DNA of 64,000 bases from an uncultured Maricaulis sp. (lineage in GTDB: Bacteria; Pseudomonadota; Alphaproteobacteria; Caulobacterales; Maricaulaceae), in assembly GCA_965217205.1 (NCBI GenBank), contig OZ244254.1:2161493-2225492 (forward strand). The letters are read 5' to 3'. The position numbers and the translations under genes are program-made. The number at the start of each line of letters is the position of its first letter. Within the stretch, counting starts at the first letter, position 1. The notes below the pieces were generated by a model. It worked only from the letters and a program-made list of their open reading frames with translations, did no database searches and was not told the DNA's origin. Shown one piece after another: positions 3,447 to 64,000 of the stretch.

Positions 3447-3452
3447 ATTATT

Positions 3453-46677: not shown

Positions 46678-46732
46678 TGGAGGATTATGGGGCGGGCCGG
46701 ATGGGGTGCGGATAAGTTTTATGCCCCAAACA

Positions 46733-46838: not shown

Positions 46839-46880
46839 GTGTGTGTGGTAATCGCGGGGATAAATGCCCGGTTTTCGAGC

Positions 46881-47000: not shown

Positions 47001-47040
47001 AATCGCTGTGATACTGCGGGGTTTTCCCCCGGCCCGCACC

Positions 47041-47610
47041 CTAATTCCCGAAGCGATAGCCCAGGCGGATGCCGGCATTGTCGAGCGCCTGGTTGCGGCC
47101 GGAGGCGAGGATCTGGCCGTGCGAAATGTGCTCGTAATAAACGCCCACAGACCAGCGGTCATCGAGGTCGTAATCGAGGCCGATGGCGTTGTGGAAGAGG
47201 ATTTCATTGCCCATCAGCGCGCGCGTGGTCGCCAGGCGAATGCGCGTCGGGTCGCCCGGGGGCGAGTTGGGATCAATATCCTCGACACCGTCATTATAGG
47301 ACAGGCCGGAGCGGAATTCGAAATTGAGATTCTCGGCGACCTCGAAATCCCAGGCCAAACCCGTGCCACCGAAATTGGTCAGGCCATTCGTGTTGAAGGA
47401 GCCGTAGAGATAGGGGCGCGGCGACCAGATCGCGTCGAGAAAATCCGGTGAGGCAAAGAGCAGATCGACGGTGATGTTCGGGCCATCTTCGACATGATCG
47501 GCCAGATCATGCGCGGTCACACCGAGGCGGAATTCCATGCCACGATCATCGGCAAGACCGGCTCCGGTGAGCAGGGCAAAAGCGGCGGTGCTCGTCAGGA
47601 TATGTTTCAT
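47041..47610 (-). CDS. Outer-membrane acyloxyacyl hydrolase (lipid A deacylase PagL/LpxR-like family)
   Basis: Signal peptide; 'LDAIWSPRPYL', 'YEHISHG' catalytic-type H-x-S-H, 'NQALDNAGIRLGYRF' barrel end. Confidence 0.75.
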   Translation of the reverse strand: MKHILTSTAAFALLTGAGLADDRGMEFRLGVTAHDLADHVEDGPNITVDLLFASPDFLDAIWSPRPYLYGSFNTNGLTNFGGTGLAWDFEVAENLNFEFRSGLSYNDGVEDIDPNSPPGDPTRIRLATTRALMGNEILFHNAIGLDYDLDDRWSVGVYYEHISHGQILASGRNQALDNAGIRLGYRFGN

Positions 47611-47675
47611 GATGTCCCCTCGAGGTCGCACGCGCGACCGGTCTGTTGTCGGTAGCTCACGGGATAAAGCGTGTC

Positions 47676-48869: not shown

Positions 48870-48958
48870 GTCGGTCTCCGGGGAATCGCGGGCGGCGGGA
48901 CAGGTTATGTTGCAGCGCACGTTGACGCCCTGACCGGCGCGGGGCAAGAGCTTTCGCC

Positions 48959-50107
48959 ATGAGTTCCACCTCCCTGATCCCGCCGCAGCGCGACCGGTTC
49001 GAGCTGCCGCGCGAGACCTGCTATCTCAACGCCGCCTATATGGGCCCGATGCCGAGCGCCGCGGTGGCGGCCGGACAGGCGAGCTATGCCCGCAAGGGCC
49101 AACCCTGGCGCTACTCCGTGCAAGCCGATTTCTTCGACGCGCCGGAACAGCTTCGCCGGCAGGCGGCCCGCCTGTTCGGCGCCAGCCCGGACGATATCGC
49201 CCTGGTCCCGGCCGCCTCCTACGGGCTGGCCAGCGCCGCGCGCAATCTGGCGCCCGATGCGAAGAGCGAAATTCTCGTTCTCGATGAGCAGTTTCCGTCC
49301 AATGTCTATGTCTGGCGCGAGCTCGCCGCCGAACATGGCGCCCGCCTGCGGACCGTGTCCCGCTCGGACAATCAGAGCTGGACCGAGGCCATGCTGGCGG
49401 CCATATCGCCAGCAACGTCGATCGTCGCCTGCCCGCACGTGCATTGGGCTGATGGCGGTGCGCTCGACCTGGCGGCGATCAGCGATGCCGCGCGCCGTCA
49501 GGGCGCGGCCCTGGTTCTGGACCTCACCCAATCGCTGGGCGTCATGCCCTTCGACCTCGTCGCGATCCAGCCGGATTTCGCGGTCGCGGCGGCCTATAAA
49601 TGGCTGCTCGGCCCGTATGCGATGGGCTTTCTCTATGTCGCGCCCCACCATCAGGCCGGCGAACCGCTGGAGCAGAACTGGATCGTCCGCGACAAGGCCG
49701 AGGATTTCGCCCGCCTGGTCGATTATGCCGACGACCACGCGCCCGGGGCACGCCGCTTCGACATGGGCGAGCGCTCGAATTTCCAGCTCGTCCCGGCGGC
49801 GATCGCGGCGCTGGACGCCATGCTGGATTGGGGCGCTGACGATCTCGCCGCGACCCTGGGCGCGAATAACAGCAGACTGGCCGAGCGTCTGCAGCCGCTG
49901 GGTCTGACCGAGACGACACCGGACCGGGCCGCCCATTATCTCAGCCTGTCCCTGCCGTCGGGCGCACCGGCCGATCTGGTCGCCCGACTCGCCTCACGCA
50001 ATATTTATGTCTCCCAGCGCGGCGACCGGATCCGCATCACACCCCATGTCTATAATGATGAGGCAGACTTCCAGTCTTTCGCCACGAGCCTGGAAGATCT
50101 GCTTTGA
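48959..50107 (+). CDS. Class V PLP aminotransferase (cysteine desulfurase/kynureninase-like)
   Basis: 'YLNAAYMGP', 'QFPSNVY.W', 'DLTQSLG', 'AAYKWLLGPY', 'IRITPHVYN'. Confidence 0.88.
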   Translation: MSSTSLIPPQRDRFELPRETCYLNAAYMGPMPSAAVAAGQASYARKGQPWRYSVQADFFDAPEQLRRQAARLFGASPDDIALVPAASYGLASAARNLAPDAKSEILVLDEQFPSNVYVWRELAAEHGARLRTVSRSDNQSWTEAMLAAISPATSIVACPHVHWADGGALDLAAISDAARRQGAALVLDLTQSLGVMPFDLVAIQPDFAVAAAYKWLLGPYAMGFLYVAPHHQAGEPLEQNWIVRDKAEDFARLVDYADDHAPGARRFDMGERSNFQLVPAAIAALDAMLDWGADDLAATLGANNSRLAERLQPLGLTETTPDRAAHYLSLSLPSGAPADLVARLASRNIYVSQRGDRIRITPHVYNDEADFQSFATSLEDLL

Positions 50108-51006
50108 CCACACCCCATACGCCCCACCAGGTTGGCCTGAAAGACTGGGCGGCCCTGCTTTTACTGACAGTCCTGTGGGGCTCGGCCTTCGCCTTCATCA
50201 AGCATGGCGTCCAGACTCTGCCGCCCGGCGCCCTGATCTTTGTTCGCCTGAGCCTTGCCGCCCTTGTACTGACCATCTGGGCCTATGCCCGCGGACGTCG
50301 CCTGCCGCCCCTGTCAGACAGGCGCTGGCTGTGGATGGGCGGGCTGGGCTTTTTCGGCAATGCCCTGCCCTTCTTCCTGGTCAGCTGGTCGCAGCAATTC
50401 ATTGACAGCGCGCTGGCCGGTATTCTGGTCTCGACCATGCCCTTGGCGACGATCGCACTGGCTCATGTCTTCGTGCCCGGTGAACGCATGACCATGCGCG
50501 CCGTGCTGGGACTGATCGTGGGCTTCGCGGGTGTCACCCTCCTGCTCGGGCCCTCGGCGCTAGCCGGACTGGGTGGCGCGGACACGCTCGCCCAGCTGGC
50601 CATTATCGGGGCCGCGATCTGCTATGCGATCAATGCTATCCAGGCCCGCCTGCTGCCAGAAACCCCGCCCTCCGTCTCCGCCGCCGGCATGCTGATCATG
50701 GCCACCATCTTCACCTTGCCGCTGGGGATCTGGGATCTGATGCAGGTGGAGAATGTGGCCGGAAGCGCCTGGGCCGCCGCCGCCTGGCTGGCGATCGGGC
50801 CGACCGCCTTCGCCTCGGTCATCCTGATGCAGGTTGCGCGGACCGCCGGCCCGAACTTCCTCGCCATCGCCAACTACCTGACCCCGATTGCCGCCCTCCT
50901 CACCGGCTTGCTGATCGGCGAGACGATCGGCTGGACGGTACTGCTTGCGCTGGTCGTCATTCTCGCTGGTGTCTGGTTGGCCCGCAGCGGTCAGCGGATC
51001 GACTAG
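50104..51006 (+). CDS. DMT/EamA-family transporter
   Basis: 'LWGSAF', 'GNALPFFL', about 10 TM. Confidence 0.88.
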   Translation: MTTPHTPHQVGLKDWAALLLLTVLWGSAFAFIKHGVQTLPPGALIFVRLSLAALVLTIWAYARGRRLPPLSDRRWLWMGGLGFFGNALPFFLVSWSQQFIDSALAGILVSTMPLATIALAHVFVPGERMTMRAVLGLIVGFAGVTLLLGPSALAGLGGADTLAQLAIIGAAICYAINAIQARLLPETPPSVSAAGMLIMATIFTLPLGIWDLMQVENVAGSAWAAAAWLAIGPTAFASVILMQVARTAGPNFLAIANYLTPIAALLTGLLIGETIGWTVLLALVVILAGVWLARSGQRID

Positions 51007-51812
51007 GGCCGCATGACCCAGGCGTGATTGACCGGGCCGTGGCCGGCACCGAAGCCGGGCGCGCGGGCGATGGCCTCATGCAGATAGTCACCGGCCCGCC
51101 GCACCGCGTCCGGCAGGGCAGCGCCATCGGCCAACAAACCGGCGATTGCCGATGCGAGCGTGCAGCCCGTGCCATGGGTGTTGCGTCCGGGCAGGCGCGG
51201 TCGTTCCATCAGCTCCATCCCGCGTGACGAGACCAGGACATCGGTCACGACATGGCCTTTCAGATGGCCGCCCTTCACCAGCGCGGCACGCGCCCCCATC
51301 CCGACGAGCCGATTGGCCGCCTCGAGCTGACCGGCAATATCCTCAATCACCAGGCCGGTGAGCTTTTCCGCTTCCGGAATATTCGGCGTGACCAGATAGG
51401 CGAGGCGCAAAAGCCGGTCCCGGATAGCCGCCTCGGTTCCCTCATCGACCAGGGCATCGCCCGAGGTCGCAACCATCACCGGATCAAGCACCAGCGGAAT
51501 GGGCGGGTCGCAGGCTTCCAGACGCTCGGCAACGAGGGTGACCACATCCGCCGTGCCCAGCATGCCGGTCTTGATAACATCCGCCCCGATATCATTCAGG
51601 ACGGCGTCGATCTGGCCCTTGAGAATGTCGAGCGGGATCGGGTGAATGGCCGAGACACCGAGCGTATTCTGCACGGTGATCGCGGTGATCGCAGTCGCGG
51701 CATACCCGCCCATCGCGGTGATCGCCTTGATGTCCGCCTGGATGCCGGCGCCGCCGCCACTGTCCGAGCCGGCAATGACGAGCACGCGGCCCTTCGGTTC
51801 GCTGATATCCAT
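51003..51812 (-). CDS. thiD: Hydroxymethylpyrimidine/phosphomethylpyrimidine kinase
   Basis: 'IAGSDSGGGAGIQADIK', 'DPVMVA', 'THGTGCTLASA'. Confidence 0.95.
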   Translation of the reverse strand: MDISEPKGRVLVIAGSDSGGGAGIQADIKAITAMGGYAATAITAITVQNTLGVSAIHPIPLDILKGQIDAVLNDIGADVIKTGMLGTADVVTLVAERLEACDPPIPLVLDPVMVATSGDALVDEGTEAAIRDRLLRLAYLVTPNIPEAEKLTGLVIEDIAGQLEAANRLVGMGARAALVKGGHLKGHVVTDVLVSSRGMELMERPRLPGRNTHGTGCTLASAIAGLLADGAALPDAVRRAGDYLHEAIARAPGFGAGHGPVNHAWVMRP

Positions 51813-51845
51813 GAGTGATCCGTCCGCTTGGCTGACTTCGTCCGC

Positions 51846-52727
51846 CTATTGCTCGCGCAAGGCCCGCAGCCGGGCCCGCGCCCGCGCCGCTTCGGCATCG
51901 GATATCGCATGCGAGGCCGCCTGGTCATAGAGGTCGCGTGCGGCCTGGTTGTCGCCCTGCTCCACCCGGATCTCGGCCAACGCCACCGTCGCGCGGAAAT
52001 TTTCCGGCTCGAAGGCCAGCATTCGCTCATAGATCGAAGCGGCAGAGGCGAGATGGCCCTCCGCGCTGAGGCAGGCCGCCTGGGCGTGCAGCAAGTTATC
52101 ATCCCACGGGCTTTGCTCGACCGCCTCTGCCTCGGCGACGCAAGCACCGGGCGGCGCGACGGCCGAATTGCCACGCGCCGACGCATCCCGCTCTTCGAAC
52201 AAGGGGGTCGGCGTCTGTGTAGTCGGCTCGCTTGGTGCCGAAGCCGTGGGCGCTCCGGAGTCTGTGCCCATTGGATCGGTCGTCTCATTCAGGGCTGTTT
52301 CGCCGAGGGTGGAGCCGGCCGGCATGACCGCGTCACGCTCCGCCACGACCACATCAATCGGCGCGGCCTGGTCGATTTCCATGCTGACCAGGATGCCGCC
52401 CTGGCGCAGCTCGGCCCGGGCACCGGTCCAGGCCCGGCTGGCATAGAGATGAATGACGCCGCCCTGCTCGATCGGGTCAACGGACACCGCCGCCACCAGC
52501 GTGTCGGAGGCTGGCGATATGGCCCGGCCGCCCACCTCGACGCCGGTCACGGTCAGATTGAGCCCGGTTTCCGTCACTTCCGTCGTCAGGCCGGAGGGTT
52601 GTTCGTCGAAGGCGATCCATATTCGACCATGCCCGTCATCAAGGCGGGCACGCAGATCGACGATCTCGGCCGCGACGGGCGCGGTCAGAACAAGGCTGGT
52701 CAGAAAGGGAAGAAGAATGGCACGCAT
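51846..52727 (-). CDS. Exported protein with C-terminal TPR repeats
   Basis: Signal peptide; Pro/Thr/Ser linker; 'A..IYERMLAFEPENFRA..ALA'. Confidence 0.7.
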   Translation of the reverse strand: MRAILLPFLTSLVLTAPVAAEIVDLRARLDDGHGRIWIAFDEQPSGLTTEVTETGLNLTVTGVEVGGRAISPASDTLVAAVSVDPIEQGGVIHLYASRAWTGARAELRQGGILVSMEIDQAAPIDVVVAERDAVMPAGSTLGETALNETTDPMGTDSGAPTASAPSEPTTQTPTPLFEERDASARGNSAVAPPGACVAEAEAVEQSPWDDNLLHAQAACLSAEGHLASAASIYERMLAFEPENFRATVALAEIRVEQGDNQAARDLYDQAASHAISDAEAARARARLRALREQ

Positions 52728-52795
52728 GCCGATGGCCTTGCTCTGCTTCGCGTAAAGACCCGGTTAAGCCCACACGCGCCGGGTAAAGCCCGCAT

Positions 52796-53662
52796 TCAGC
52801 CCACCTCGGGGTCCAGGGCGGCGACCGGACCGGCATCGCAGGCATCGAACCCGAACGCCCCGATCAGCGTTTGATCCGCCTCGCGCACCGCCTCATAGAC
52901 ATAACACCCCTCGCCGAATGTCGGCAGCTCGCCACGCACGAAGATCGGGTCGCCCTCGCCAAACATGGCGTCAGCGGCATCGAGTGGGCGCACGGAATTG
53001 ATCGCCGTGCCCTGCTCGCGGGTCGCGCATTCCCAGGTGCGCGTGTCGAGATCGACAATGCGTACGCCGGTTTCGCCACCACTCATCGTGTAGGCGATCG
53101 AGACATGCTGGGCCCGGTCCCGAAACTCCGCCAGGCAGAGATCAATCACCGGCAGATAATCGATCAGGTAATTCGACCAACGATCGTGCTCCCCGCCGAC
53201 TTCGCGCCCGCAACCGCTGGCCGTACGCCGTCCGATCGACATGTCGGCAAAATAGATCAGCGTATCGCCGCTCTGGGTCCGGCACGGCCCGGCCTGGAGT
53301 TCGAGATGGATGAGGCGACCTTCGCTGTCCTCACCGTTGAACTGGCGCAAACCGCCATCAAGATAGGGCATGGCAATATCAAGATAAGCCCGCACTTGCC
53401 GCCCGTCTGCATAACTCATCTGCAACAGGGCCCGCGCGTCGCCTTCATCATCGACATAGCCTAGCTGACCGGTCCAGTCGCCACCGCGCAGGTCATAGCC
53501 CGCGCCGGTGACTGGCGCCCGCCCCGACGGCGCGTAATTGAAGGCCGAACTGGCCAGCCCGCCGCCCGCCGCGCCGCCCGTATGAGTCGTGGTCGAGGCA
53601 CACGCCGCCAGGCTGGTACCGATCAATGCAAGAAAAAGAACACGCAAAAGCATCTGGTCCAA
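52796..53662 (-). CDS. Hypothetical lipoprotein
   Basis: Lipobox 'LAAC'; several Cys pairs. Confidence 0.65.
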   Translation of the reverse strand: MDQMLLRVLFLALIGTSLAACASTTTHTGGAAGGGLASSAFNYAPSGRAPVTGAGYDLRGGDWTGQLGYVDDEGDARALLQMSYADGRQVRAYLDIAMPYLDGGLRQFNGEDSEGRLIHLELQAGPCRTQSGDTLIYFADMSIGRRTASGCGREVGGEHDRWSNYLIDYLPVIDLCLAEFRDRAQHVSIAYTMSGGETGVRIVDLDTRTWECATREQGTAINSVRPLDAADAMFGEGDPIFVRGELPTFGEGCYVYEAVREADQTLIGAFGFDACDAGPVAALDPEVG

Positions 53663-53792
53663 TGCCCCCTGATTTGTCCGGGCCCCGGCCGCGCAACCCG
53701 ACCCCCTCGTCCACGCTTGCCCTTTTTCAGCCTAACACATGAACACAAGCTGAGTGCGAGAATTCGGGACGACCGGGCCTGACGTGAGCGGA

Positions 53793-54683
53793 TCAGATCC
53801 GTTCGGGGAAATGCTCGGCCAGGAAATCGACAAAAAGACGTACGCGATGGGCAAGATACCGATTGGAGGGAAAGACCGCCCACAGGAAGCGCTGTTCCGC
53901 CTCCCAATCCGTCAGAACTTCAACGACGCGCCCATCGGCGAGCGCCTCTTCGGCTGCCCAGCGCGGAGAACAGGCTATGCCGACACCGGCAGCTGCGGCG
54001 CTGACGGCAGCGACGGCACCATTGAGAGTCAGCCGACCATTGACGCGGACATCCACCTCCTCCTCGCCACGGAGGAATTTGAGCATGTGCGGCGCCGGTT
54101 TGTTGCGGTCAATCACCACTTCATGTTTCGCCAGATCCGAAGGGTGTTCAGGCCTGCCCGCGCGAGCGAGATAGTCCGGCGACGCCACGACCGTCATGCA
54201 GGCCGCCGCCAGGCGTTTCGCAATCAGGGCACTGTCGGGCAGGTTACCGATCCGCACGCCAACATCGAATCCCTCATTGACCAGGTCGACCATGCGGTCC
54301 GCGAAGGAGAGACGCACCTCCACGCCCGGCCAGTCATTCATGAATTCCGTGACGATTGGCAAAAGCCGACGGGCGCCGAAATCGACCGGTGCCGCGACGC
54401 GCAGCACACCGGCCGGTGCCGATCGCGCATCCGCAACGCCCTGCTCGAGACCGTCATACTCATCCAGCCAGGGCCGGACGCGATCGAGCAAGGCCTCCCC
54501 CGCATCCGTCAACCGAACGGACCGCGTCGTCCGCTCGAACAGACGGGCCTGCAGGCGTTGTTCGAGCGCGGTGATCTGCTTGGACGCCGCGCCCGGCGTC
54601 ATGGCCTCGCGCTCGGCCGCCTTGGTGAAGCTCTCCAGCTCGGCGACCGAGCAGAAAAGGCGAAGGGCATCAATCCGGTCCAT
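53793..54683 (-). CDS. LysR-family transcriptional regulator (CrgA-like)
   Basis: 'SFTKAA...ASKQITALEQRLQARLFERTTRSVRLT'. Confidence 0.92.
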   Translation of the reverse strand: MDRIDALRLFCSVAELESFTKAAEREAMTPGAASKQITALEQRLQARLFERTTRSVRLTDAGEALLDRVRPWLDEYDGLEQGVADARSAPAGVLRVAAPVDFGARRLLPIVTEFMNDWPGVEVRLSFADRMVDLVNEGFDVGVRIGNLPDSALIAKRLAAACMTVVASPDYLARAGRPEHPSDLAKHEVVIDRNKPAPHMLKFLRGEEEVDVRVNGRLTLNGAVAAVSAAAAGVGIACSPRWAAEEALADGRVVEVLTDWEAEQRFLWAVFPSNRYLAHRVRLFVDFLAEHFPERI

Positions 54684-54794
54684 TTATTCCCCAGCAGAAA
54701 GAGACGCGCTCGTTGCAGCTTATTTATCTTAAAGCGCGCACCATTCCTATGGGCATTTCAATGAGGTCCCGCGACGCCCTGTTGACCGGGCGGA

Positions 54795-55871
54795 TCAATC
54801 TGCCGCGCGCGGGCCAAGTCGTGCCGCCACATCCGGCCAATCCAGCATCTCCGCAACCGCATGAAAGTCCGGCGTGCCGTCGGGGCGGATGTCGCTATCC
54901 GCGCCGGCATCGAGGAGGGCAAGCACGGCCTCCCGCTGCCCCTCGAAGGCCGCCCAGTAAAGCGGCGTCGCACCCGCGACATCCTGGACATCAGGATTCG
55001 CCCCGGCAGCGGCCAGCGCCGCAATGATATCGACATGGCCGGCGATCGCCGCCACATGGGTCGCGGTCAGCGCCATGCCGTTTTCCCCGGCGACATGATC
55101 GGGGTCAGCCCCTGCACGAAGGAGGCGGCCCACCGCCGCTCCATGTCCCTCACGCGCCGCTTCGAAGAGCGCGGTGAAGCCGATCGCGTCAACCGCATCA
55201 ATCTCGGCCCCGGCCTCTATCAGGACGTCCAATCCAGCCTCGTGACCAACCCGCGCGGCCGTGTGAAGAATTGGCCGCCCGGCCCAATCGGTGACCGCGT
55301 TGACCTCCGTCAGTGCGAGCAGGGACAGGAATAGCTCGCGCTCATTGCCGAGCAGGGCGGCCTCCAGGGCCGCATGGGCGGCCGACCTTAGCGGCCCCGG
55401 CCTTTGCGGATCCTGCGCTGTCGCGTCAAGCGCGAGGGCAAGCACGTCCTGATGACCGCGGCGGATGGCGATTTCAGCGACCGTACCATGACCGACCTGT
55501 TCGCCGCTCGCACCGGCCCGGAACAGCTCGGCCACAACCGCGGCATGGCCATAATAGGCGGCCCAGTTGATCGCCGGATCACCGGCCGAGTCCGGCGTAT
55601 CGACTTGCGCGCCAGCGGCGATAAGCATTCTTGCAAGAGCCGGGTCCGGATTGGACGCGGCCAGCATCAAGGCGGTCGCCTCCAGCCCCGTCTCCGCTCG
55701 CGCGTCGGGGTCGGCGCCGGCCTCCAGTATGGCTGCCAGCGCGCTGGCATCACCGGCCTGCAAGGCGGCCTGCATGTCGGGCGGGATCTCCGCATCAACG
55801 GCCGTGGTCGCGAGCAGCCCCGATACCGCAATAACAAGCCCGGTCCGAAAGCGGGATATAAGTGTGCGCAT
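54795..55871 (-). CDS. Exported ankyrin-repeat protein
   Basis: Repeated 'G.TALM.AA', 'AINWAA..G', 'TALFEAAREGH', 'TPLYWAA' units; signal peptide. Confidence 0.85.
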   Translation of the reverse strand: MRTLISRFRTGLVIAVSGLLATTAVDAEIPPDMQAALQAGDASALAAILEAGADPDARAETGLEATALMLAASNPDPALARMLIAAGAQVDTPDSAGDPAINWAAYYGHAAVVAELFRAGASGEQVGHGTVAEIAIRRGHQDVLALALDATAQDPQRPGPLRSAAHAALEAALLGNERELFLSLLALTEVNAVTDWAGRPILHTAARVGHEAGLDVLIEAGAEIDAVDAIGFTALFEAAREGHGAAVGRLLRAGADPDHVAGENGMALTATHVAAIAGHVDIIAALAAAGANPDVQDVAGATPLYWAAFEGQREAVLALLDAGADSDIRPDGTPDFHAVAEMLDWPDVAARLGPRAAD

Positions 55872-55938
55872 GATGTCCTCCCGTGCCAGCGGCAAGGTTA
55901 GACCGCGCACCGGAATGCTGCGCCCAACATCTTTGTGA

Positions 55939-57054
55939 TCAGTCCGCGAGGGCGAGCTTGAAATTGCGCCGCTGGAGGCGCACTGGCAGCCGGAAATCAA
56001 TGAGATCCGCGGCACCAATGCTGCGCAGCATTTCATCCACAGACTGTCGCGCCTCACCAGCCAGGCCTTCACGATAATCCGTGACGCGCTGGAGCATCCA
56101 GAGCGCGTAGGGGATGATGGCGCGGTCGGTGGTCACCGTCGCACCGCCATGCCCCAGTTCAACCTTGTGAAAGCCCAGTATACGCGGGATTTCAGACCCG
56201 GGCGCCTGCTCGCTCGACCAGGCCTTGAGGGCCTCGCTGGTGGCTTTCAGGACCGGCCATTGCTGCGCAGCAAAACGCTGCAGCATTTCCATGACGCCAA
56301 CCGGAATTTCATCCCCCTCAAGGAAGTCGCCGGCCAGGCAATGCTGCGGCGCATGCGTGTATTCCGCCCAGGCGGCAACACGCGGCGCCAGCCGCCGCAT
56401 CAGCTCGCCCGATTTGGGATCGCGCAGCAAATGCGCATAGAGCGGGCCAAGCAGACCATAGTCGGCAATAGATGGTCGGCCGCCGAAGAGGAAGGGCTGT
56501 TCGGCCAGATGCGCGTCAAAGACGCCGAGGAAGTCCTCATAAGCAGCCTCGATCGCGGCAACACTGTCCGGATTGACGCCCAAACCACCGACCGAGCCGG
56601 AGAAAAAGCCGACGGCCTTCTCGGCCGCGGCGAATTGTTCCTCCGGTGCGAGATGGGGATGGCTGCTGGCGCCGAATTCCTGCTGCGCGAAATCGCGATT
56701 ATAGGCCCAGCGGTAATGCATGGCCGGGATCACCAGCCACTCATCGCCGAATAGCTCCAGGATGAGCGAAGCCAGACGCTGCCGCGGCGTGTCAGGATAG
56801 ATGGACGGGCCGGGTTCACGGGCCTCGACATGATCGATGATCTCGGTCGTGTCCTGCAGCGTCTCACCCAGCTCGCTGTCATCATGATGGATGACAACCG
56901 GAATGACCGACCAGCCGACACGCGGCAGGATGTCAGCCTTGTAGACCTCACGCGTCGACAGGCGCTCGGTGAAGGCGACATTCTTCCAGCGCAGATATCC
57001 GCGCACCTTGCCGGTATAAAGCGATACCGGCGCTCCGATCAGGGTGTAGGTCAA
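55939..57054 (-). CDS. Glutathione S-transferase family protein
   Basis: 'SLYTGKVRGYLRWK', 'LQDTTEII', 'ADYGLLGPLYAHL.RDP'. Confidence 0.82.
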   Translation of the reverse strand: MTYTLIGAPVSLYTGKVRGYLRWKNVAFTERLSTREVYKADILPRVGWSVIPVVIHHDDSELGETLQDTTEIIDHVEAREPGPSIYPDTPRQRLASLILELFGDEWLVIPAMHYRWAYNRDFAQQEFGASSHPHLAPEEQFAAAEKAVGFFSGSVGGLGVNPDSVAAIEAAYEDFLGVFDAHLAEQPFLFGGRPSIADYGLLGPLYAHLLRDPKSGELMRRLAPRVAAWAEYTHAPQHCLAGDFLEGDEIPVGVMEMLQRFAAQQWPVLKATSEALKAWSSEQAPGSEIPRILGFHKVELGHGGATVTTDRAIIPYALWMLQRVTDYREGLAGEARQSVDEMLRSIGAADLIDFRLPVRLQRRNFKLALAD

Positions 57055-57126
57055 AGCACTCTCCTCGTTGCGGCCGAGCCTAACGAGGTTTGCGGTGACG
57101 AAAAGCGTGAAATTACGGCGCGGTGA

Positions 57127-57351
57127 TCAGCGCCGGGCGCTGTAGATCTCGCGCACCTTGACGACGATGCCCGCTTCGTGACGCGCCACAACGCGGTCGA
57201 CATTCTCCGCGGCGGTATCAAAGGCCGACCAGGCGGACCAGCCCATGACGCCGGTCATCAGAACCGCCGCCGCCCAGCAAACGAGCGCGATGGACCGTGC
57301 ATAGCTGGTCCACGTCGTTAGCTGCCAGCGATGTGATCCCGAGAGAAACAT
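57127..57351 (-). CDS. Small single-TM hypothetical protein
   Basis: 74-aa ORF with one hydrophobic helix, preceded by an AT-rich promoter-like region. Confidence 0.5.
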   Translation of the reverse strand: MFLSGSHRWQLTTWTSYARSIALVCWAAAVLMTGVMGWSAWSAFDTAAENVDRVVARHEAGIVVKVREIYSARR

Positions 57352-57435
57352 GGGTCCAGAAACCTTGTGCGCCGAGGCAATTTAACCTCGCCCCGCATTC
57401 TGCCGATGAACAGCGTTAACGCATCTCATATTTGA

Positions 57436-57450
57436 TTAACATCTTGTTCA
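57436..57450. promoter_or_regulatory. Near-consensus CtrA box TTAA-CATCTTG-TTCA
   Basis: One mismatch to TTAA-N7-TTAA; additional TTAAC half-sites nearby. Confidence 0.4.
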
Positions 57451-57619
57451 ATAATCGCGCCAAGCGTGTTTTGGCGGAAATCTCAACACCTTACCACATC
57501 GGTTGTGGAGGATGACGAACACAATATTCGCGTTTCAGGAGAATTGGGCGAATTTTCGCTGATGATTCCAAGGGGAGTGACCTGACCGCGCCCCGGCGGG
57601 CGCGAATGCGCGTGTCGCC

Positions 57620-58002
57620 CAAACCCCAAACGCACCAACCGCCCGTCCCTGACCTGGCAAGAGGTGAGGAGGCGGGCGGCCGTGTTGCGTCCGGGTCGGG
57701 TTTTGACACCTCTCCCTTCAGCGTCCCCTTTCTTTCGATCAGGGCAGCACCGCGGTGAGGCAGCGCTGGCATCTTGGCGGCCTGGTCCCCGGCCTTGCGG
57801 TCGGTTCAGTCCCTCCGGTTCGGCGAGCCCTCCGCGCCGGTCCTTGCAGACCCTTGCCTTGGAACCTGACCTGAATTTCGGGCCCCTTGCGGGTCCTTTT
57901 CTTCCGGCCTGCTGTCCGGAACCGGTCCTTGCGAACCTGCTCCTTCGAGCCACCTCTCCGGCGATCCCCGGTCCTTTCGGACCACTTCGGTCGCTGTCGA
58001 TG
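57620..58002 (-). ncRNA. Candidate large structured ncRNA with repeated GNRA-capped hairpins
   Basis: Five GMAA-loop hairpins, three near-identical (GGTYY-GMAA-GGACCGG); G-U wobbles favour the minus strand; closing 7-bp stem with U/G tail; no credible CDS. Confidence 0.6.
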
Positions 58003-58007
58003 ATTGA

Positions 58008-58036
58008 AGTAGAGCAGGCCGGACCCGCCTCTGCAA
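58008..58036 (-). promoter_or_regulatory. Candidate sigma70 promoter for the structured RNA
   Basis: TTGCAG, 17 nt, TCTACT on the minus strand; -10 is weak. Confidence 0.35.
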
Positions 58037-58055
58037 CGCACGGAAAATGCGTTTT

Positions 58056-58106
58056 CGTGGACAAGTCGCCGGACTTGGTGGAAAACCTTCCACTTTCCGT
58101 GGAAAA
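58056..58106. repeat. Three DnaA-box-like direct repeats (C/G)GTGGA(A/C)AA at exact 21-bp spacing
   Basis: cgtggacaa 58056, ggtggaaaa 58077, cgtggaaaa 58098; each 2 mismatches from TGTGGATAA. Confidence 0.55.
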
Positions 58107-58163
58107 GCTGGTGAAAACTTTCAACAGCCTGATTTCACGCCCTGATTAGCGCAGGTGCGGACA

Positions 58164-58200
58164 AGAAAAAACCGGCGCGAACAGTGCCGCGCCGGTTTCT
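58164..58200 (-). terminator. Intrinsic terminator of the fad operon
   Basis: aaccggcgcg/cgcgccggtt stem followed by a T-run on the minus strand. Confidence 0.8.
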
Positions 58201-58227
58201 TGCAGTCGCCGTGAGGCGTGAGGCGGA

Positions 58228-60444
58228 TTACTCCGCCGCCACTGCCGCCGGAGCGCCGAAGCGGCCGTAGAAGGTCTCGCCCTTCTCGGCCATTTCGACG
58301 AGGAGGTCCGGCACCGCGAACTGGTCGCCATAGGCGGTTTCCAGTTCCTTGGCGCGGGCCACGAAGGCCTTGGCGCCGATGGTGTCGATGTAGGACAGCG
58401 TGCCGCCGGTATAGGGCGCGAAACCCCAACCGAGGATCGAGCCGACATCAGCCTCACGCGGATCCTGGACGATGTCCTCACCCATGCAACGCGCCGCTTC
58501 CAGCGCCTGGGCGTAGAGGATGCGGTCCTTGATCTCGTCGGCGCTGGGCTGCTCGTCGGCATATTGGCCGCCGGGCGCGAACTGCTCCAGCTCCGGCCAG
58601 AGACGCTTGGGCTGACCCTTTTCGGCCGGGTAGTCGTAGAAGCCCTTGGCATTCTTGCGACCGAAGCGCTCATATTCCTCGACCATCTTGAACAGGATCG
58701 GCTCGGTCTTGGACGGCTTGTGCGCGTCACCCAGATCGGCCTTGGTCTGCTTGATCAGCTTCACGCCGAGATCCAGCGCCACTTCGTCCTGAAGCGACAG
58801 CGGGCCAACCGGCATGCCGGCCATCCTGGCGGCATTCTCGATCAGGGCCGGCTTCACGCCCTCGGCAAGGAGGTTCATGCCCTCACCGATATAGCGCATC
58901 ACGCAGCGATTGGCGTAGAAGCCGCGCGTGTCGGAGACGACGATCGGCGTCTTCTTGATCTTGGTGACGAAGTCGATCGTGCGCGAGAGGGCATAATCGC
59001 CCGTCTTCTCACCCATGATGATCTCGACCAGATTCATCTTCTCGACCGGCGAGAAGAAGTGGATGCCGATGAAATTGTCCGGACGGGCCGACGCCTTGGC
59101 CAGATCGGTGATCGGGATGGAGGAGGTGTTCGAGCCGAACACCGCCGTGGTGCCGATCTGCTCTTCCGCCATCTTGGTGATCTTGGCCTTGAGTTCGGAA
59201 TTTTCGAACACCGCCTCGACGACCAGATCGACGTCCTTGATAAGGGTATAATCCGTGGTCGGCGTGATCAGGGCGCCCAGCTTGGCCGCCTTCTCTTCGC
59301 TCAGCTTGCCGCGGGCGACGCCCTTGGCGAAGTGGTCGGTGCAATGCGTCTTGCCCTTGTCGGCGCCCTCTTGCGTGGCATCGATGAGAACAATCTCGAT
59401 CCCGGCCTGGGCCGAGACCGTGGCAATGCCCGCACCCATGAAGCCGGCCCCGATGATGGCGATCTTGTTGATCTCGCCCTTGTCCTGACCGGCCGGACGG
59501 CGTCCGCCCTTGTCCAGGTCCTGCTTGGACAGGAAGATCGAGCGGATCATGTTGCGGCTTTCCGGGCGCAGCAGAAGCTTGGTAAAATACCGGCTCTCGA
59601 TGCGGATCGCCTGATCCATATTGACCTGGCTGCCTTCATAGACGCAGGACAGGATGTAACGCTGGGCCGGGTAATTGCCATAGCTGGTCTTGCGCAGCAT
59701 GGGCGAGGCGGCGCCAAACATCTGGCCACCGGCGGGATGGTAGGGACCACCGCCCGGGAAGCAGAACTTGTCGCCATCCCAGGGCTGTTTGGCCCCCTTG
59801 GGGTCTTCCTTGACCAGGCCCTTGGCCTTGGCGACCAGCTCATCGAGCGGCGCCAGGGCATCAACAATGCCCTGCTGCTGTGCGGTCGCGGCGTCGAGCT
59901 GCTTGCCCTGCAACAGGATCGGCGCAGCATTCATCAGGCCGACGAGGCGCGGCAGGCGCTGGGTGCCGCCACCGCCCGGCAGGACGCCGACCATGGCTTC
60001 AGGCAGGCCGAGCTTGGCGGAGGGATTGTCCGACGGCATGACGCGGTAATGACAGGCCAGGGCGATCTCGAAGCCGCCGCCCAGGGCGAGGCCGTTGATC
60101 GCCGCGGCGATCGGCTTGCCGCAGGTTTCCAGGGCGCGGAACGTCTTGTTGAGACGGAAGCATTGCTCGAACAGCTTCGTCTTCATCTCCTCTTCCGGCA
60201 GCTTGGCCAGTTCGCTCGAGGAGCTGCCCAGTTCGGACAGGTCGGCCCCGGCGCAAAACGCCTTCTTGCCCGAGGTGATGACCACGCCCTTGATAGCGTC
60301 GTCGGAGATAATCTTGTCGGTCAGCGCGTCGAAGTCATCCATGACCTCGGCCGAGATGACATTCATCGACTTGCCCGGGCTGTCAAAGGTGACCAGGGCA
60401 ATGCCGTCTGTATCGATTTCGAGTGTGAAGTTTTTCAAAGACAT
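58228..60444 (-). CDS. fadJ: Multifunctional enoyl-CoA hydratase / 3-hydroxyacyl-CoA dehydrogenase (FadJ/FadB type)
   Basis: 'FCAGADL', 'LGGGFE', 'GLPE', 'GAGFMG', 'EAVFE', 'SNTS', 'HFFSP'. Confidence 0.9.
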   Translation of the reverse strand: MSLKNFTLEIDTDGIALVTFDSPGKSMNVISAEVMDDFDALTDKIISDDAIKGVVITSGKKAFCAGADLSELGSSSSELAKLPEEEMKTKLFEQCFRLNKTFRALETCGKPIAAAINGLALGGGFEIALACHYRVMPSDNPSAKLGLPEAMVGVLPGGGGTQRLPRLVGLMNAAPILLQGKQLDAATAQQQGIVDALAPLDELVAKAKGLVKEDPKGAKQPWDGDKFCFPGGGPYHPAGGQMFGAASPMLRKTSYGNYPAQRYILSCVYEGSQVNMDQAIRIESRYFTKLLLRPESRNMIRSIFLSKQDLDKGGRRPAGQDKGEINKIAIIGAGFMGAGIATVSAQAGIEIVLIDATQEGADKGKTHCTDHFAKGVARGKLSEEKAAKLGALITPTTDYTLIKDVDLVVEAVFENSELKAKITKMAEEQIGTTAVFGSNTSSIPITDLAKASARPDNFIGIHFFSPVEKMNLVEIIMGEKTGDYALSRTIDFVTKIKKTPIVVSDTRGFYANRCVMRYIGEGMNLLAEGVKPALIENAARMAGMPVGPLSLQDEVALDLGVKLIKQTKADLGDAHKPSKTEPILFKMVEEYERFGRKNAKGFYDYPAEKGQPKRLWPELEQFAPGGQYADEQPSADEIKDRILYAQALEAARCMGEDIVQDPREADVGSILGWGFAPYTGGTLSYIDTIGAKAFVARAKELETAYGDQFAVPDLLVEMAEKGETFYGRFGAPAAVAAE

Positions 60445-60701
60445 CAGGATTTCTCCTCATCGGACGCGTCGCCATCGTCGGCGGCGTCCTGCTTTTTCTT
60501 GAGTTCTTTCGCCTTGGCAGCGCCGAAGGCGAGCGACATGGAGACAGCAAAGGCGACGCCCATCGACAGACCCAGGGCGAAATTATCCAGCGCCACGCCC
60601 ATGGAGACACCCAGGGCGATGCCGACCGGCAATCCCAGGGGCAGGCCCAGCTTGAGAATATTGGCTTCGCCTTGCGGCTTGTCGTTCGGGTCGTCGCTCA
60701 T
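60444..60701 (-). CDS. Small glycine-zipper membrane protein
   Basis: '[33 protein letters not shown]'; translationally coupled to fadJ. Confidence 0.7.
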
Positions 60702-60703
60702 GG

Positions 60704-61909
60704 CTAGACCCGCTCGATGATGGTCGCGGTGCCCATGCCGCCGCCGACGCAGAGCGTGGTCAGGGCGGTTTGCTTGCCCGTGCGCTCCAGTTCGTCGAGG
60801 ACGGTGCCCAGGATCATCGCGCCGGTGGCGCCCAGCGGGTGACCCATGGCGATGGCGCCGCCATTCACATTCATGATGGAATGGTCGATGTCATAGGCCT
60901 GCATCAGGCGCAGCACGACCGCAGCGAAAGCCTCGTTGAGCTCCCACAGATCGATATCGCCTGCTTCCATGCCGGCCTTTTTCAGGGCCTTGGCGGTGAC
61001 CGGAACCGGTCCCGTCAGCATGATGGTCGGCTCGGAACCGATCGAGGCCATCGAGCGGATCCGCGCCCGCGGCTTGAGACCGGCACGCTCGCCCGCCTCT
61101 TTCGATCCGACCAGGACCATGGCCGAGCCGTCGACGATACCCGAGGAATTGCCGCCGGTATGGACCCAGTTGAGATATTCCACTTCCGGATAGCGCTGGG
61201 TGGCGACCGCTTCAAAACCGACAAAATCCGACATGTCCTTGAAGGCCGATTTCAGCGAGCCGAGGCCCTGCATGTCAGTGCCCGGACGCATGTGCTCGTC
61301 ATGGTCGAGAATGGTCGTGCCCAGCTGGTCCTTCACGGCGACGACCGATTTGGCGAAACGGCCCTCTTCCCAGGCCTGCGCGGCGCGCTTCTGGCTTTCA
61401 ACGGCATAGGCGTCGACGTCGTCGCGGCTAAAGCCATACTTGGTGGCGATCAGGTCGGCAGAGACGCCTTGCGGCACGATGTAATGGTCGAAGGAAATCT
61501 CCGGATCGACACCCATGGCACCGCCATCGGAGCCCATCGGCACGCGCGACATGGCTTCCACACCGCCGCCAATGGCAAAATCGGCCTCGCCGGACATCAC
61601 CTTGGCCGCGGCGACATTCACCGCTTCCAGGCCCGAGGCGCAGAAACGGTTGAGCTGATAGCCGCCCGTGGTCTCGGCATAGCCGGCATTGATCACGGCC
61701 GAGCGCGCGATATTGGCGCCCTGCTCACCAACCGGCGAGACGACCCCCATGATCACGTCATCGACGAGCGCGGTGTCGAGATTATTGCGGTCACGGATCG
61801 CGGCGAGCTGCTGGGTGGCCAGCTGCAGCGCGGTGATCTCGTTGAGCGCTCCATTCTTTTTCTTGCCGCGCGGCGTGCGCGTGGCGTCGAAGATATAAGC
61901 TTCTGTCAT
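60704..61909 (-). CDS. fadA: Acetyl-CoA C-acyltransferase (thiolase)
   Basis: 'NRFCASGL', 'NEAFA', 'GHPLGATG', 'CVGGGMG'. Confidence 0.92.
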
Positions 61910-61981
61910 GGTCACTTCCTTTCCCTTGGCGGGGTGGTTCCCTTTATCGACGTAGTCATCTGATGAGGGCGGGGCGCGGGA

Positions 61982-62587
61982 CTAGTCATCCTCTTCCGCC
62001 TCGTCCTCGATCATGTGGTAGGCGACGGCATGTTCGCCGCGTTCATTGAGGGCGTGGGCGATGCGCAGACGCTCCTCCAATGGCTTGTTCTGTGAGAGCT
62101 TGGCCTTGCCCTCCAGGCGGTCAATCTCGAACTCGAAGGGCTGGATGGCCATTTCCAGCATGGCGCGACGCTTTTCTTCCAGCCGGGTAATGCGCCACTC
62201 GCTTTCAAAATCGGCGATCTGCGAGGACAGCGCCCGTTCGGCCTCGACGCCCTCAAGCGGTACCAGCGAGCCGAACGCATGCACGGCGACATAATTCCAG
62301 GTCGGTACATTCTCGTGCGGCCGCGAATACCAGGTCGGTGAGATATAGGCATGCGGACCGGTGAAAACGACCATCGCCTCCTTGCCCGCCTTGATCGCCG
62401 CGGCGGCCGGATTGGCCATGGCGACATGACCGATCAGGACCAGGCGCTCATCGGCCAGCTTGAAGGGGATATGCGTCGCCGCCAGGTCCGGCTCGCCCGG
62501 AATCAAGAGCAGACCGAAATCATACGACCGCATCACCGCCCGCATCTCGCTCTCGTCTTCCATTTTGAAATGTGTGGGCGTGTACAT
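61982..62587 (-). CDS. FMN-binding negative transcriptional regulator (PaiB family)
   Basis: 'MYTPTHF', 'GPHAYISPTWY', 'VPTWNYVAVH', 'KLSQNK'. Confidence 0.9.
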   Translation of the reverse strand: MYTPTHFKMEDESEMRAVMRSYDFGLLLIPGEPDLAATHIPFKLADERLVLIGHVAMANPAAAAIKAGKEAMVVFTGPHAYISPTWYSRPHENVPTWNYVAVHAFGSLVPLEGVEAERALSSQIADFESEWRITRLEEKRRAMLEMAIQPFEFEIDRLEGKAKLSQNKPLEERLRIAHALNERGEHAVAYHMIEDEAEEDD

Positions 62588-63012
62588 CAGGCGCGTTTCC
62601 CGGAAACGAAGATGAGGGCGACCAGAAAAGCGAGGCTGGGCGCCAGCAGGGTCAGCACCATCGGCACCAGCGAGTAGAGCCGCAATTGCGCAAACTCGGC
62701 CGGATTGTCCCCGCCGAGCAGGAGATGGGCCGGGATGGAGATCAGGATCGGCGCGGTGGCGATCACCCAGTATCCGACCAGCGCGGCCAATACGCGCAGC
62801 CGCGAGCCGAGCAGAAACGACACCGCCAGCGCAAACAGGGTCGCGATGACCGGTGGCAGGGCGAGGCCCAGCCAGTGCGGATAATCCTCCAGCGCGAAAC
62901 TCGCCCCGAACCAGATACCCGACCCCAGCCGCGCCGCCAGCACGGTGCCCGCACCGCCGGCGATTGCGGCGATGAGGAGGGAGCGCAGGGAGTTGTCGCG
63001 GCTGTCAGTCAT
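62587..63012 (-). CDS. Hypothetical membrane protein
   Basis: Four hydrophobic segments; stop/start overlaps with both neighbours. Confidence 0.65.
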   Translation of the reverse strand: MTDSRDNSLRSLLIAAIAGGAGTVLAARLGSGIWFGASFALEDYPHWLGLALPPVIATLFALAVSFLLGSRLRVLAALVGYWVIATAPILISIPAHLLLGGDNPAEFAQLRLYSLVPMVLTLLAPSLAFLVALIFVSGKRA

Positions 63013-63449
63013 GAGCCAGCCTCCGCTGCACAGCGCATCAGCTCCGAACGCCGCCCGTCTTCGTCTATTATGGTCATTTGATCGCCAAGCCGCGCGAAGC
63101 TGAGGTACTCGGTCCATGAGTGCGGAGGATGCACGATGAGTGTGTCGCAAGAGAGCTCTACGCGATACCCTCCGCCGAACACTTGCCTGTAAGCCCGGCG
63201 CACAGAACACCCGCCAGGAGCTGGGTGGCCATCAATCATATGCGCTTCGATGCCGACGACCTCATCCCCGTCGCACTGACCGGCCACCGCCCATTGGCCC
63301 GAAAAACAGCGGCTGAATTCCTGTTCATCAGCAAACGCGCGGTCTCGCCAGGTTGATACCCCGGACGCGCACGCCGCTTCGTCATGGGTCGGCACGGACG
63401 CACAGCCCGCCAAGGTGGCGGTGAACAGCAATGCCAAGGCACCTTTCAT
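63009..63449 (-). CDS. Hypothetical lipoprotein
   Basis: Lipobox 'LAGC'; starts 3 nt after the acyl-CoA dehydrogenase stop. Confidence 0.68.
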   Translation of the reverse strand: MKGALALLFTATLAGCASVPTHDEAACASGVSTWRDRAFADEQEFSRCFSGQWAVAGQCDGDEVVGIEAHMIDGHPAPGGCSVRRAYRQVFGGGYRVELSCDTLIVHPPHSWTEYLSFARLGDQMTIIDEDGRRSELMRCAAEAGS

Positions 63450-63451
63450 CC

Positions 63452-64000
63452 CTACAGCGTCCTCGCGATCAACAGCTTCATGATCTCGTTTGTCCCGCCA
63501 TAGATCCGCTGGACGCGGCTGTCGGTCCACATTTTCGCAATGGGATATTCGCGCATGTATCCATAGCCGCCATGCAGCTGGACGCATTCGTCCATGACCT
63601 CGTTCTGGGCTTCGGAGACCCAGTATTTGGCCATTGAGGCGGTGGCGGCGTCGAGTTCGCCCTTCATCAGGCGTTCCGAGCAATGATGGGTGAAGACCTC
63701 GGCCAGGGTCGCCTTGGTCTTGCATTCGGCGAGCTTGAACTGGGTATTCTGGAATTTCAGGATCGGACGGCCAAAGGCCTCGCGTTCCTTGGTGTAATTG
63801 ATCGTCTCGTGCAGGGCGCGCTTCATCGCGCCGACACCCTGGACGGCGATCTGCAGGCGTTCCTGGGGCAATTGCTGCATCAGCTGGATGAAGCCCTGGC
63901 CCTCTTCCTGGCCGAGCAGGGCGTCAGCGGGAACCCAGACATCCTCGAAGAAGAGCTCGGCCGTGTCCTGGGCTTTCATCCCGACCTTGTCGAGCAGGCG
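63452..64000 (-). CDS. Acyl-CoA dehydrogenase, C-terminal part; runs off the window end
   Basis: 'QDTAELFF', 'ERL.IA', 'QLHGGYGYMREYPIA', 'RIYGGTNEIMK'. Confidence 0.93.
   Translation of the reverse strand, partial: RLLDKVGMKAQDTAELFFEDVWVPADALLGQEEGQGFIQLMQQLPQERLQIAVQGVGAMKRALHETINYTKEREAFGRPILKFQNTQFKLAECKTKATLAEVFTHHCSERLMKGELDAATASMAKYWVSEAQNEVMDECVQLHGGYGYMREYPIAKMWTDSRVQRIYGGTNEIMKLLIARTL

Follow-up and report, generated by a model that had tools for sequence, protein, structure and literature searches.

What is encoded in the ~870 nt of apparently non-coding DNA that follow the fadB terminator in an uncultured Maricaulis sp.? We addressed this question for a 64,000-nt stretch of assembly GCA_965217205.1 (contig OZ244254.1, positions 2,161,493 to 2,225,492), hereafter the window. 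A first-pass annotation, made from the sequence alone, had marked 57620-58002 as a large, structured and independently transcribed non-coding RNA (ncRNA) on the minus strand. Sequence conservation, covariation, expression data and negative results from Rfam and ARAGORN lead us to the same conclusion, with limits that agree with our estimate of ~57625-58000. The ncRNA sits in the gap downstream of fadB and is almost certainly the product of a real, independent gene that founds an uncatalogued RNA family. Beyond what that annotation had described, we found the phased array of DnaA-box-like sites, an expandable, U-poor hairpin body, a 3' helix of invariant sequence and an extreme abundance of the RNA.

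A family of homologous RNAs

A scan around fadB homologues provided a starting set of 80 loci. Searches with blastn, nhmmer and regular expressions showed that 27 of these loci, which belong to Maricaulis, Hyphobacterium and Oceanicaulis, carry a homologous block 3' of fadB. A metagenome scan with the pattern of the 3' helix gave 42 matches, about 15 of them true family members. In total, the family comprises ~40 homologues of 245-704 nt from the three genera and from marine metagenomes. Common to all members are a sigma-70-type promoter with one to four co-oriented DnaA-box-like sites, a short 5' start, a U-poor body of hairpins and a long 3' hairpin. The 5' start reads (A/G)UCG(A/G) in every subgroup. 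The ends of the RNA are conserved and the middle is plastic, with a G-rich body that contains only ~11% U.

Compensatory changes support a hairpin array

Folding of the single sequence does only weakly better than folding of shuffles (z = -2.3 for the minus and -2.6 for the plus strand) and does not separate the strands, so the case for structure and strand rests on comparative data. We aligned 12 sequences of the M. maris-like group and predicted their common fold with RNAalifold. The resulting structure has 86 predicted pairs, with 95.9% of cells paired, and 22 of the pairs show compensatory double changes. In none of 500 shuffles was the paired percentage or the covariation score as high as in the real alignment, and slid controls, in which the 3' partners were moved by 1-3 columns, gave 2-7 compensatory pairs versus the 22 observed. 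The predicted local hairpins and the 3' hairpin are thus supported by compensatory changes within the alignment. The first-pass annotation had proposed that homologues be collected and inspected for covariation, and both the ~40 homologues and the 22 of 86 pairs answer to that proposal.

The individual hairpins (Table 1) include all five GNRA-capped hairpins that had been picked out from the sequence, each found on the minus strand where it had been placed. The cagcgc/gtgctg stem and the final ccgcccg/cgggcgg stem are likewise present and show compensatory changes in relatives. Two further stems fared unequally: gctc/gagc has moderate support (81% paired, one compensatory pair) and ttccgg/ccggaa did not, being 53% paired and not conserved. 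The pattern GGNNCGNAAGGACCGG, allowing at most one mismatch, occurs three times in the region and nowhere else in the window, for which 0.31 occurrences are expected in all. A direct-repeat family, D1, has copies at 57837-57852, 57922-57937 and 57968-57983. Another recurrent element is a GUCAAA loop, present in one to three copies per RNA in most members and carried on covarying stems. The assignment to the minus strand had originally been made from G-U pairs; several such pairs are conserved, and a covariance model of the 3' hairpin favours the same strand (75 bits on the minus versus 19 on the plus strand).

A separate observation concerns position 57848, where the RNA-library contigs all read G rather than A on the plus strand, that is, C rather than U in the RNA. 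With this change, the 57839-57853 hairpin has a C-G pair in place of U.G. It is a strain difference and not editing, since the same base is found in the DNA of the related loci L003 and L004.

Expression far above the flanking genes

RNA libraries from several studies hold near-identical sequence, and their contigs cover only 57658-57991 of the window. In two small seawater metatranscriptomes, the depth is 270-8000 at the ncRNA versus ~0-1 over the other ~19.5 kb of 44001-64000. Two RNA runs labelled with single organisms, possibly transcriptomes of host organisms, contain this stretch alone from 55000-61000. The same picture is provided by the 704-nt homologue at locus L013, which was recovered almost whole (9292-9959 of the predicted 9286-9989). 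Its depth is ~400 versus 0-5 in the flanks in three small transcriptomes and 6-7.5x10^5 versus 7-74 in a synthetic-community metatranscriptome. By contig depth, a crude measure of abundance, the ncRNA exceeds its flanking genes ~100-fold to >10,000-fold.

Two features of the L013 libraries are worth recording in their own right. In run X45, depth along 9277-9978 is 6-7.5x10^5 in the 5' two-thirds and ~15-20-fold lower (3.9x10^4) in the 3' third; either processing that leaves a stable 5' fragment or an assembly artefact caused by the internal duplication described below could account for the drop. Runs X44, X49-X55 and X57 are small oligo-dT-primed transcriptomes labelled with a single organism, and they contain this bacterial RNA at high depth. 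It follows that either an associated Maricaulis was extremely abundant, or priming took place internally or in a poly(A)-dependent manner.

A promoter with phased DnaA-box-like sites

A scan for the E. coli-type consensus misses the promoter of the ncRNA. Conservation nonetheless makes it clear: a -35 block, a variable spacer, a -10-like block and a second short variable segment lead to an invariant transcript start. The -10-like element CTACTTC resembles the Caulobacter-type CTAnAWC element. The first-pass proposals of a promoter of the RNA's own and of insulation by a fad terminator, which is present at 58166-58201, therefore both stand.

Upstream of the core promoter lie sites that we identified by the textbook DnaA-box consensus TTATCCACA. 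The proximal site is found in all 25 representatives, with column counts of T24, T25, A14/G9, T25, C25, C25, A24, C25 and A12/G11. Further boxes lie exactly 21 and 42 bp upstream of the proximal one in most members, and matches keep a conserved position relative to the core promoter (-64/-85/-106) across the 25. Across 1.28 Mb of collected sequence, searched on both strands, the pattern of two boxes with a 12-nt gap occurs at these promoters and nowhere else. Individual members vary around this theme. At locus L014, two boxes match TTATCCACA perfectly and the third reads TTATCCACG, only one box is present in Oceanicaulis and in some Hyphobacterium copies, and L005 carries TTTTCCCCA at the place of the fourth site seen in the window.

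On these sequence grounds, DnaA probably controls transcription of the ncRNA. Class-I-type activators usually sit at such upstream positions. Because the array occupies a class-I-like position, we favour activation by DnaA, with repression as the lesser possibility.

A plastic array of hairpins

The predicted loops of the family include GCAA (32 occurrences), GAAA (23), UUCG (9) and GUCAAA-type loops (about 18). In relatives, the same hairpins carry UCCC, UCA, CCCG or UUCG in place of GNRA. This replacement makes specific contacts between GNRA loops and receptors unlikely, and the tertiary scaffold that the first-pass annotation had envisaged on the basis of such contacts loses its footing. 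The loops look more like caps that lend stability than like elements that dock into specific tetraloop receptors. Pairing of the GUCAAA loop with the 3' tail was considered and, judged by eye, is not conserved across the family.

Array length shifts by independent, lineage-specific duplications and expansions. The L013 RNA contains an internal tandem duplication of 184 nt (9388-9760) whose two copies are 80% identical, and L005 has an insertion of ~330 nt (~9130-9460) consisting of about seven UUCG-capped hairpins. Expansion also affects the gene as a whole, as Oceanicaulis has two copies. At L059, the copies (2036-2282 and 2666-2914) are in tandem, each with its own single-DnaA-box promoter. 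At L067, the copies lie at ~9250-9681 and 11512-11759, and the upstream one, for which no promoter was located, exceeds the other in length and divergence (its 3' helix scores 47 bits).

An invariant 3' helix

Within the long 3' hairpin, a 10-bp core formed by GCCGCCCGCC (57671-57680) and GACGGGCGGU (57638-57647) is invariant in 23 of 23 representatives. This core retains a C.A mismatch and G.U pairs, and the apical part of the hairpin covaries freely. Because the core stays invariant while the apex covaries, the pattern indicates that the core is a candidate target of sequence-specific recognition. In the Maricaulis groups, the 3' tail pairs with the strand upstream of the stem, with C-G/A-U covariation, and the tails of Oceanicaulis lack a U-run. 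The tail pairing and the tails without a U-run together suggest that the 3' element is more than a simple intrinsic terminator.

A side observation concerns the 5' strand of the helix, in which ACGGCCGCC (57672-57680, minus strand) is a 9-nt complement of E. coli 23S ribosomal RNA (rRNA) 1903-1911, adjoining helix 69. The complement is kept in the Maricaulis groups only and is probably a coincidence of GC-rich sequence.

Known RNAs, coding sequences and mobile elements

We asked whether the region could be accounted for by something already catalogued. With cmscan at the gathering score, Rfam 15 gave no match in the whole window or in 10 homologous loci. Searches at gathering and permissive thresholds covered the window and three further subgroups, none of which matched a known family. 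Chance-level matches were all that the window region yielded at E<=10, each below the gathering score; the best of them, to radC (25.5 bits versus a gathering score of 40), falls on the fadB terminator. The L013 and L022 copies, which represent groups G2 and G3, returned nothing from Rfam at E<=1, and ARAGORN reported 0 genes and no transfer-messenger RNA (tmRNA). The first-pass judgement that the RNA is not RNase P, tmRNA, signal recognition particle (SRP) RNA or 6S RNA is borne out by the empty Rfam 15 and ARAGORN results. The segment CAGGUCAGGU resembles SRP domain IV, a likeness that we dismissed since SRP models give no match.

Protein-coding readings were rejected as well. In an open reading frame (ORF) of 213 aa at 57483-58124, insertions and deletions are all of 1-2 nt, substitutions fall 15/13/10 by codon position, that is, without 3-periodicity, and there is no Pfam domain. 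Frameshifting indels, missing periodicity and lack of Pfam domains likewise rule out the set of overlapping 213-, 100-, 95- and 93-aa ORFs. The low U content of ~11% accounts for these long stop-free frames.

Repetitive and mobile origins were also rejected. TRF shows no tandem array in the window, and the hairpin pattern is found nowhere else in the window, unlike what a genome-wide repetitive extragenic palindromic-like element would give. Plasmids, phages and viral contigs contain no match that would point to a mobile or phage origin.

Possible functions of the RNA

We favour a reading in which the ncRNA is a DnaA-gated, very stable, trans-acting scaffold or sponge, and we put the probability of this reading as a whole at roughly 0.45. 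DnaA bound to the phased boxes would gate transcription, and the level of the RNA would thereby be tied to replication initiation and growth status in these dimorphic bacteria. Low U content and stable, capped hairpins would confer nuclease resistance and so allow accumulation far above messenger RNA (mRNA). The RNA would act in trans as a multivalent platform, either sponge or scaffold, for a protein or RNA partner. Its valency would be tuned by the number of hairpins, with the array as a dosage-scalable part, and the invariant 3' helix would serve as an element of sequence-specific recognition and stability. The sponge or scaffold mechanism, taken by itself, is a tentative proposal. A multivalent sponge had been one of two mechanisms raised at the outset; a sponge or scaffold is the most plausible reading in view of the lineage-specific expansion of modules, but neither a partner nor a binding motif repeated in every member came to light.

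Several observations weigh against this reading. GUCAAA loops are absent from L046, L012, L097 and L005, and no binding motif is repeated in all members. The k-mers that come out as enriched are for the most part words from tetraloops (GCAAG, CGCAA), ACCGG/CCGGA and UCAAA, and not one of these is shared by every member. Long-range helices 1, 2 and 4 never change on both sides and are thus without covariation support. Searches up to 6 kb from fadB detected no copy at 11 other Maricaulis/Hyphobacterium loci or at loci of Hyphomonas, Robiginitomaculum and Hellea; these absences apply to the fadB neighbourhoods.

The promoter and the transcript add points of the same kind. Single DnaA-like 9-mers are not enriched in the window (22 found, 24 expected), so the argument for DnaA boxes rests on phasing and conservation, and the window boxes TTGTCCACG, TTTTCCACC and TTTTCCACG each differ from TTATCCACA by 1-2 bases. 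The start and 3' end of the ncRNA were placed by conservation and contig ends. RNA contigs carry no strand information. Adapter remnants do occur in one consistent orientation at the proposed 5' ends, with the read-2 adapter before the sense 5' end (L013 runs; X25 and X30 alike), and they lend weak support to the minus strand if the libraries are of the dUTP type. The strand assignment otherwise rests on the promoter, the conserved G.U pairs and the 3'-hairpin model. Finally, run X39, of unknown type and uneven depth, has a single contig at 57502-58440 that extends from the fadB 3' end through the ncRNA and past the 3' hairpin; if it derives from RNA, it may represent some read-through transcription.

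A different function, which we consider rather unlikely, is that of an Hfq-type base-pairing small RNA (sRNA) or a sponge for other sRNAs. Seeds would be supplied by the invariant 5' segment, which reads AUCGACAGCGACCGAAG in the M. maris group, or by the purine-rich linkers, and the 3' hairpin with its U-containing tail would bind the chaperone. Such a role would suit an RNA with its own promoter, a terminator-like 3' hairpin and a 5' end that is invariant and partly unpaired within the M. maris group, and RNA sponges are known in the Caulobacterales, where CrfA sequesters SisA-D (PMC12559287). However, a length of 245-704 nt and a depth 10^2-10^4 times that of mRNA are unlike typical seed-type sRNAs. 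The 5' sequence also varies among subgroups and is base-paired in the Hyphobacterium group, and an RNA with ~11% U offers few A/U-rich Hfq sites, with Oceanicaulis tails lacking a U-run altogether.

A lead seen post hoc, of low probability and high interest, is provided by the 3' strand of the invariant core. The 10-mer GACGGGCGGU (57638-57647, minus strand) is exactly complementary to 16S rRNA 1398-1407 (ACCGCCCGUC, a universally conserved segment of the decoding centre), as read on E. coli rrsH. The RNA could thus bind this segment in free or immature 30S subunits, or bind a factor that reads it, and so modulate ribosome availability. The 10/10 complement is kept in every family member, and when the 10-mer is permuted at matched composition, an exact rRNA complement turns up for only 0.29% of the permutations. 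The non-Watson-Crick positions of the core (C.A and G.U) fall exactly where the 5' strand departs from 16S, so the 3' strand matches 16S better than it matches its own partner. The extreme, near-rRNA abundance would also suit a stoichiometric ribosomal target. Set against these points, a 10-nt rRNA complement arises somewhere in a 376-nt RNA in 70% of shuffles and the 10-mer is buried in a very stable GC helix. Pairing beyond 10 nt is inconsistent (14/16 in three groups, less in Oceanicaulis), and the reference was E. coli rrsH rather than the host's own 16S. We therefore regard this function as improbable. Were it true, ribosome availability would be coupled to replication-initiation status and the RNA would represent a riboregulator of a new class.

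Very high abundance, stable structure and a long rod-like 3' helix also recall 6S and Ms1 RNAs, which would make the ncRNA a ligand of RNA polymerase and a modulator of global transcription. Rfam gives no 6S match even at permissive thresholds, and in place of a long rod with a central open-promoter-like bubble we find a multi-hairpin array that varies from 245 to 704 nt; such a function is quite improbable.

Another possibility is that selection acts on the DNA, with the phased boxes and strong promoter forming a DnaA-titrating or DnaA-modulating locus (datA/DARS/mioC-like) and the RNA as a by-product. The array of three to four phased boxes is indeed conserved more strictly than most of the RNA body. 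However, selection on the RNA itself is evident from the compensatory changes and the invariant 3' helix, the array is reduced to one box in Oceanicaulis and in some Hyphobacterium copies, and no origin-like features or divergent gene orientation are found nearby, so we consider this very unlikely. A replication origin at the locus was rejected separately, as gene orientation and skew do not support it.

A sponge for a CsrA/RsmA-type protein, akin to CsrB/RsmZ, can hardly be right: the size, the multi-hairpin build, the variable number of units and the five AAGGA motifs of the window copy (a count from the first-pass annotation that we confirm) would fit, but GGA lies mostly in stems, as that annotation had itself cautioned, only ~15 of ~200 predicted loops contain it, the loops are of the structural tetraloop type, relatives do not keep the AAGGA positions, and the upstream sites are DnaA-like rather than GacA/UvrY-like.

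Features of the locus and neighbouring genes

Table 1. Positions of the ncRNA gene, its promoter elements, its predicted hairpins and the adjoining fad genes in the window
Feature	Position	Strand	Basis or remark
ncRNA, ~375 nt; 5' end (C)AUCGACAGCGACCGAAG, 3' end ...GGUUGGUGCGUUUGGG	~57625..58000	-	conservation, covariation, RNA contigs over 57658-57991
Weak fourth DnaA-box-like site TTTTCACCA	58109..58117	-	11 bp further upstream than the distal box; kept only in the M. maris-like group
Distal DnaA-box-like site TTTTCCACG (-106)	58098..58106	-	21 bp upstream of the middle box
Middle DnaA-box-like site TTTTCCACC (-85)	58077..58085	-	21 bp upstream of the proximal box
Proximal DnaA-box-like site TTGTCCACG (-64)	58056..58064	-	in 25/25 representatives; consensus TT[A/G]TCCAC[A/G]
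-35 element TTGCAG (TTGACC in other subgroups)	58031..58036	-	conserved block, then variable 17-18-nt spacer
-10-like element CTACTTC	58006..58012	-	conserved block, then variable 6-7 nt, then invariant transcript start
Hairpin UGGUCC-GAAA-GGACCG	57969..57984	-	helix 3; 2 compensatory pairs, 94% paired
Hairpin GCUC-GAAG-GAGC	57939..57950	-	81% of cells paired, 1 compensatory pair; moderate support
Hairpin GGUUC-GCAA-GGACC	57924..57937	-	helix 6; 2 compensatory pairs
Hairpin GGACCC-GCAA-GGGGCC	57881..57896	-	helix 7; just 2 predicted pairs, 1 compensatory
Hairpin GGGUCU-GCAA-GGACC	57839..57853	-	helix 8; compensatory changes in relatives
Hairpin CCGACC-GCAA-GGCCGG	57789..57804	-	helix 10; 3 compensatory pairs
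Hairpin CAGCGCUGCC-UCACCG-CGGUGCUG (cagcgc/gtgctg)	57745..57768	-	helix 11; 4 compensatory pairs
Small hairpin with GUCAAA(A) loop	57699..57710	-	helix 13; the family's recurrent loop motif
Long 3' hairpin, ~30 bp	57626..57694	-	helix 14; outer part pairs CCGGACGCAAC with GUGCGUUUGG
Intrinsic terminator of fadB, stem and U-run	58166..58201	-	inverted repeat; separates the RNA gene from the fadAB operon
fadB	58228..60444	-	assigned by Pfam
fadA	60704..61915	-	upstream of the 85-aa ORF, then fadB

The ncRNA lies beside the fadAB operon, and FadB of the window is 97-98% identical to FadB of M. maris DSM 4734 and of one Maricaulis metagenome-assembled genome. Between fadA and fadB, an 85-aa Gly/Ala-rich ORF (60444-60701, minus strand) abuts the fadB start; it is 48-77% identical in several related loci and has no Pfam family. 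Beyond the gap that holds the ncRNA come a conserved 74-aa ORF (57127-57351, minus strand) and then GST-like, ankyrin-repeat and LysR regulator genes. The 74-aa ORF has a hydrophobic segment and lies 270-500 nt 3' of the ncRNA in the M. maris-like clade. Without belonging to a Pfam family, it is 44-100% identical across genomes and metagenome contigs, and it looks like a real gene for a small membrane protein. The segment between the 3' hairpin and this ORF (57350-57620) is AT-rich (49% GC versus 62-70% around it), is kept in close relatives only and presumably constitutes the promoter region of the ORF.

In the closest relatives (L001, L002, L003 and L035), 1-1.9 kb are inserted between the fadB end (~8210) and the RNA promoter (~9160-10070). 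Despite these insertions, the ncRNA retains its promoter and stays beside the 74-aa ORF.

Three roles that would tie the RNA to its neighbours were considered and rejected. The persistence of its own promoter despite the insertions argues against a 3' processing product of fadBA. A cis-regulatory leader is contradicted by downstream genes that vary among subgroups, some of them convergent, and by RNA coverage that ends at the 3' hairpin. As for RNA-binding partners among the downstream neighbours, inspection by eye found one S-adenosylmethionine-dependent methyltransferase-like protein and otherwise ordinary ones.

Implications

If confirmed, the ncRNA would bring one new family to the few very abundant ncRNAs known from bacteria, in marine dimorphic relatives of a cell-cycle model. 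To our knowledge and in the literature searched, no ncRNA driven by a phased DnaA-box array has been described before; such control would connect the replication initiator directly with regulation by an RNA. The 245-704-nt array constitutes a natural allele series with which valency could be related to function. At 10^2-10^4 times mRNA depth, purification of the RNA for partner and structure work should be easy. In marine and algal-culture transcriptomes and metatranscriptomes, the ncRNA shows as an unannotated contig of high depth.

Comparison with known systems

A comparison with described RNAs and promoters reveals partial likenesses to several systems. The CsrB/RsmZ/CrcZ sponges are similarly 250-700 nt long, abundant and independently transcribed, with many hairpin units whose number varies between species. 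Their promoters are likewise served by upstream activator sites, which in the present family are DnaA-like. In contrast to those sponges, the ncRNA has no repeated GGA or CA-rich loop motif and carries structural tetraloops. With 6S and the mycobacterial Ms1 RNA it shares very high abundance, stability, a housekeeping-like character and long helical elements, but it differs in having no 6S covariance-model match and no central bubble, and in its branched array of variable length.

CrfA of Caulobacter crescentus is short (<100 nt) and Hfq-dependent, and it pairs with alphaR8 sRNAs. It is found in a related group of dimorphic stalked alphaproteobacteria, where it serves as a trans-acting sponge RNA tied to nutritional state (PMC12559287). 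We detected no sequence or structural similarity between CrfA and the hairpin-array RNA.

Another point of comparison is provided by DnaA-regulated promoters, which include those of dnaA, mioC and nrdAB in E. coli and of gcrA, ftsZ and podJ in Caulobacter (compare PMC8203912). These resemble the ncRNA promoter in having TTATCCACA-type 9-mer sites immediately upstream of the -35 element, whereas the strictly 21-bp-phased, co-oriented array and an ncRNA as the driven gene set the present promoter apart. In the literature searched, we found no description of an ncRNA with a DnaA-box array promoter and none of this kind in Maricaulis.

The large structured RNAs OLE, GOLLD, ROOL, raiA and IMES were, like this one, found via conservation and covariation, and some of them are extremely abundant in marine metatranscriptomes. 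The present RNA matches none of them in Rfam, belongs to a different clade (Maricaulaceae) and has a middle that is far more variable and modular. In function, the ncRNA most resembles the CsrB/RsmZ/CrcZ-type sponges and other very abundant, housekeeping-like ncRNAs, yet it fails the defining features of each. We thus classify it as a new RNA family of the abundant, structured, trans-acting kind, with a promoter architecture that is without precedent.

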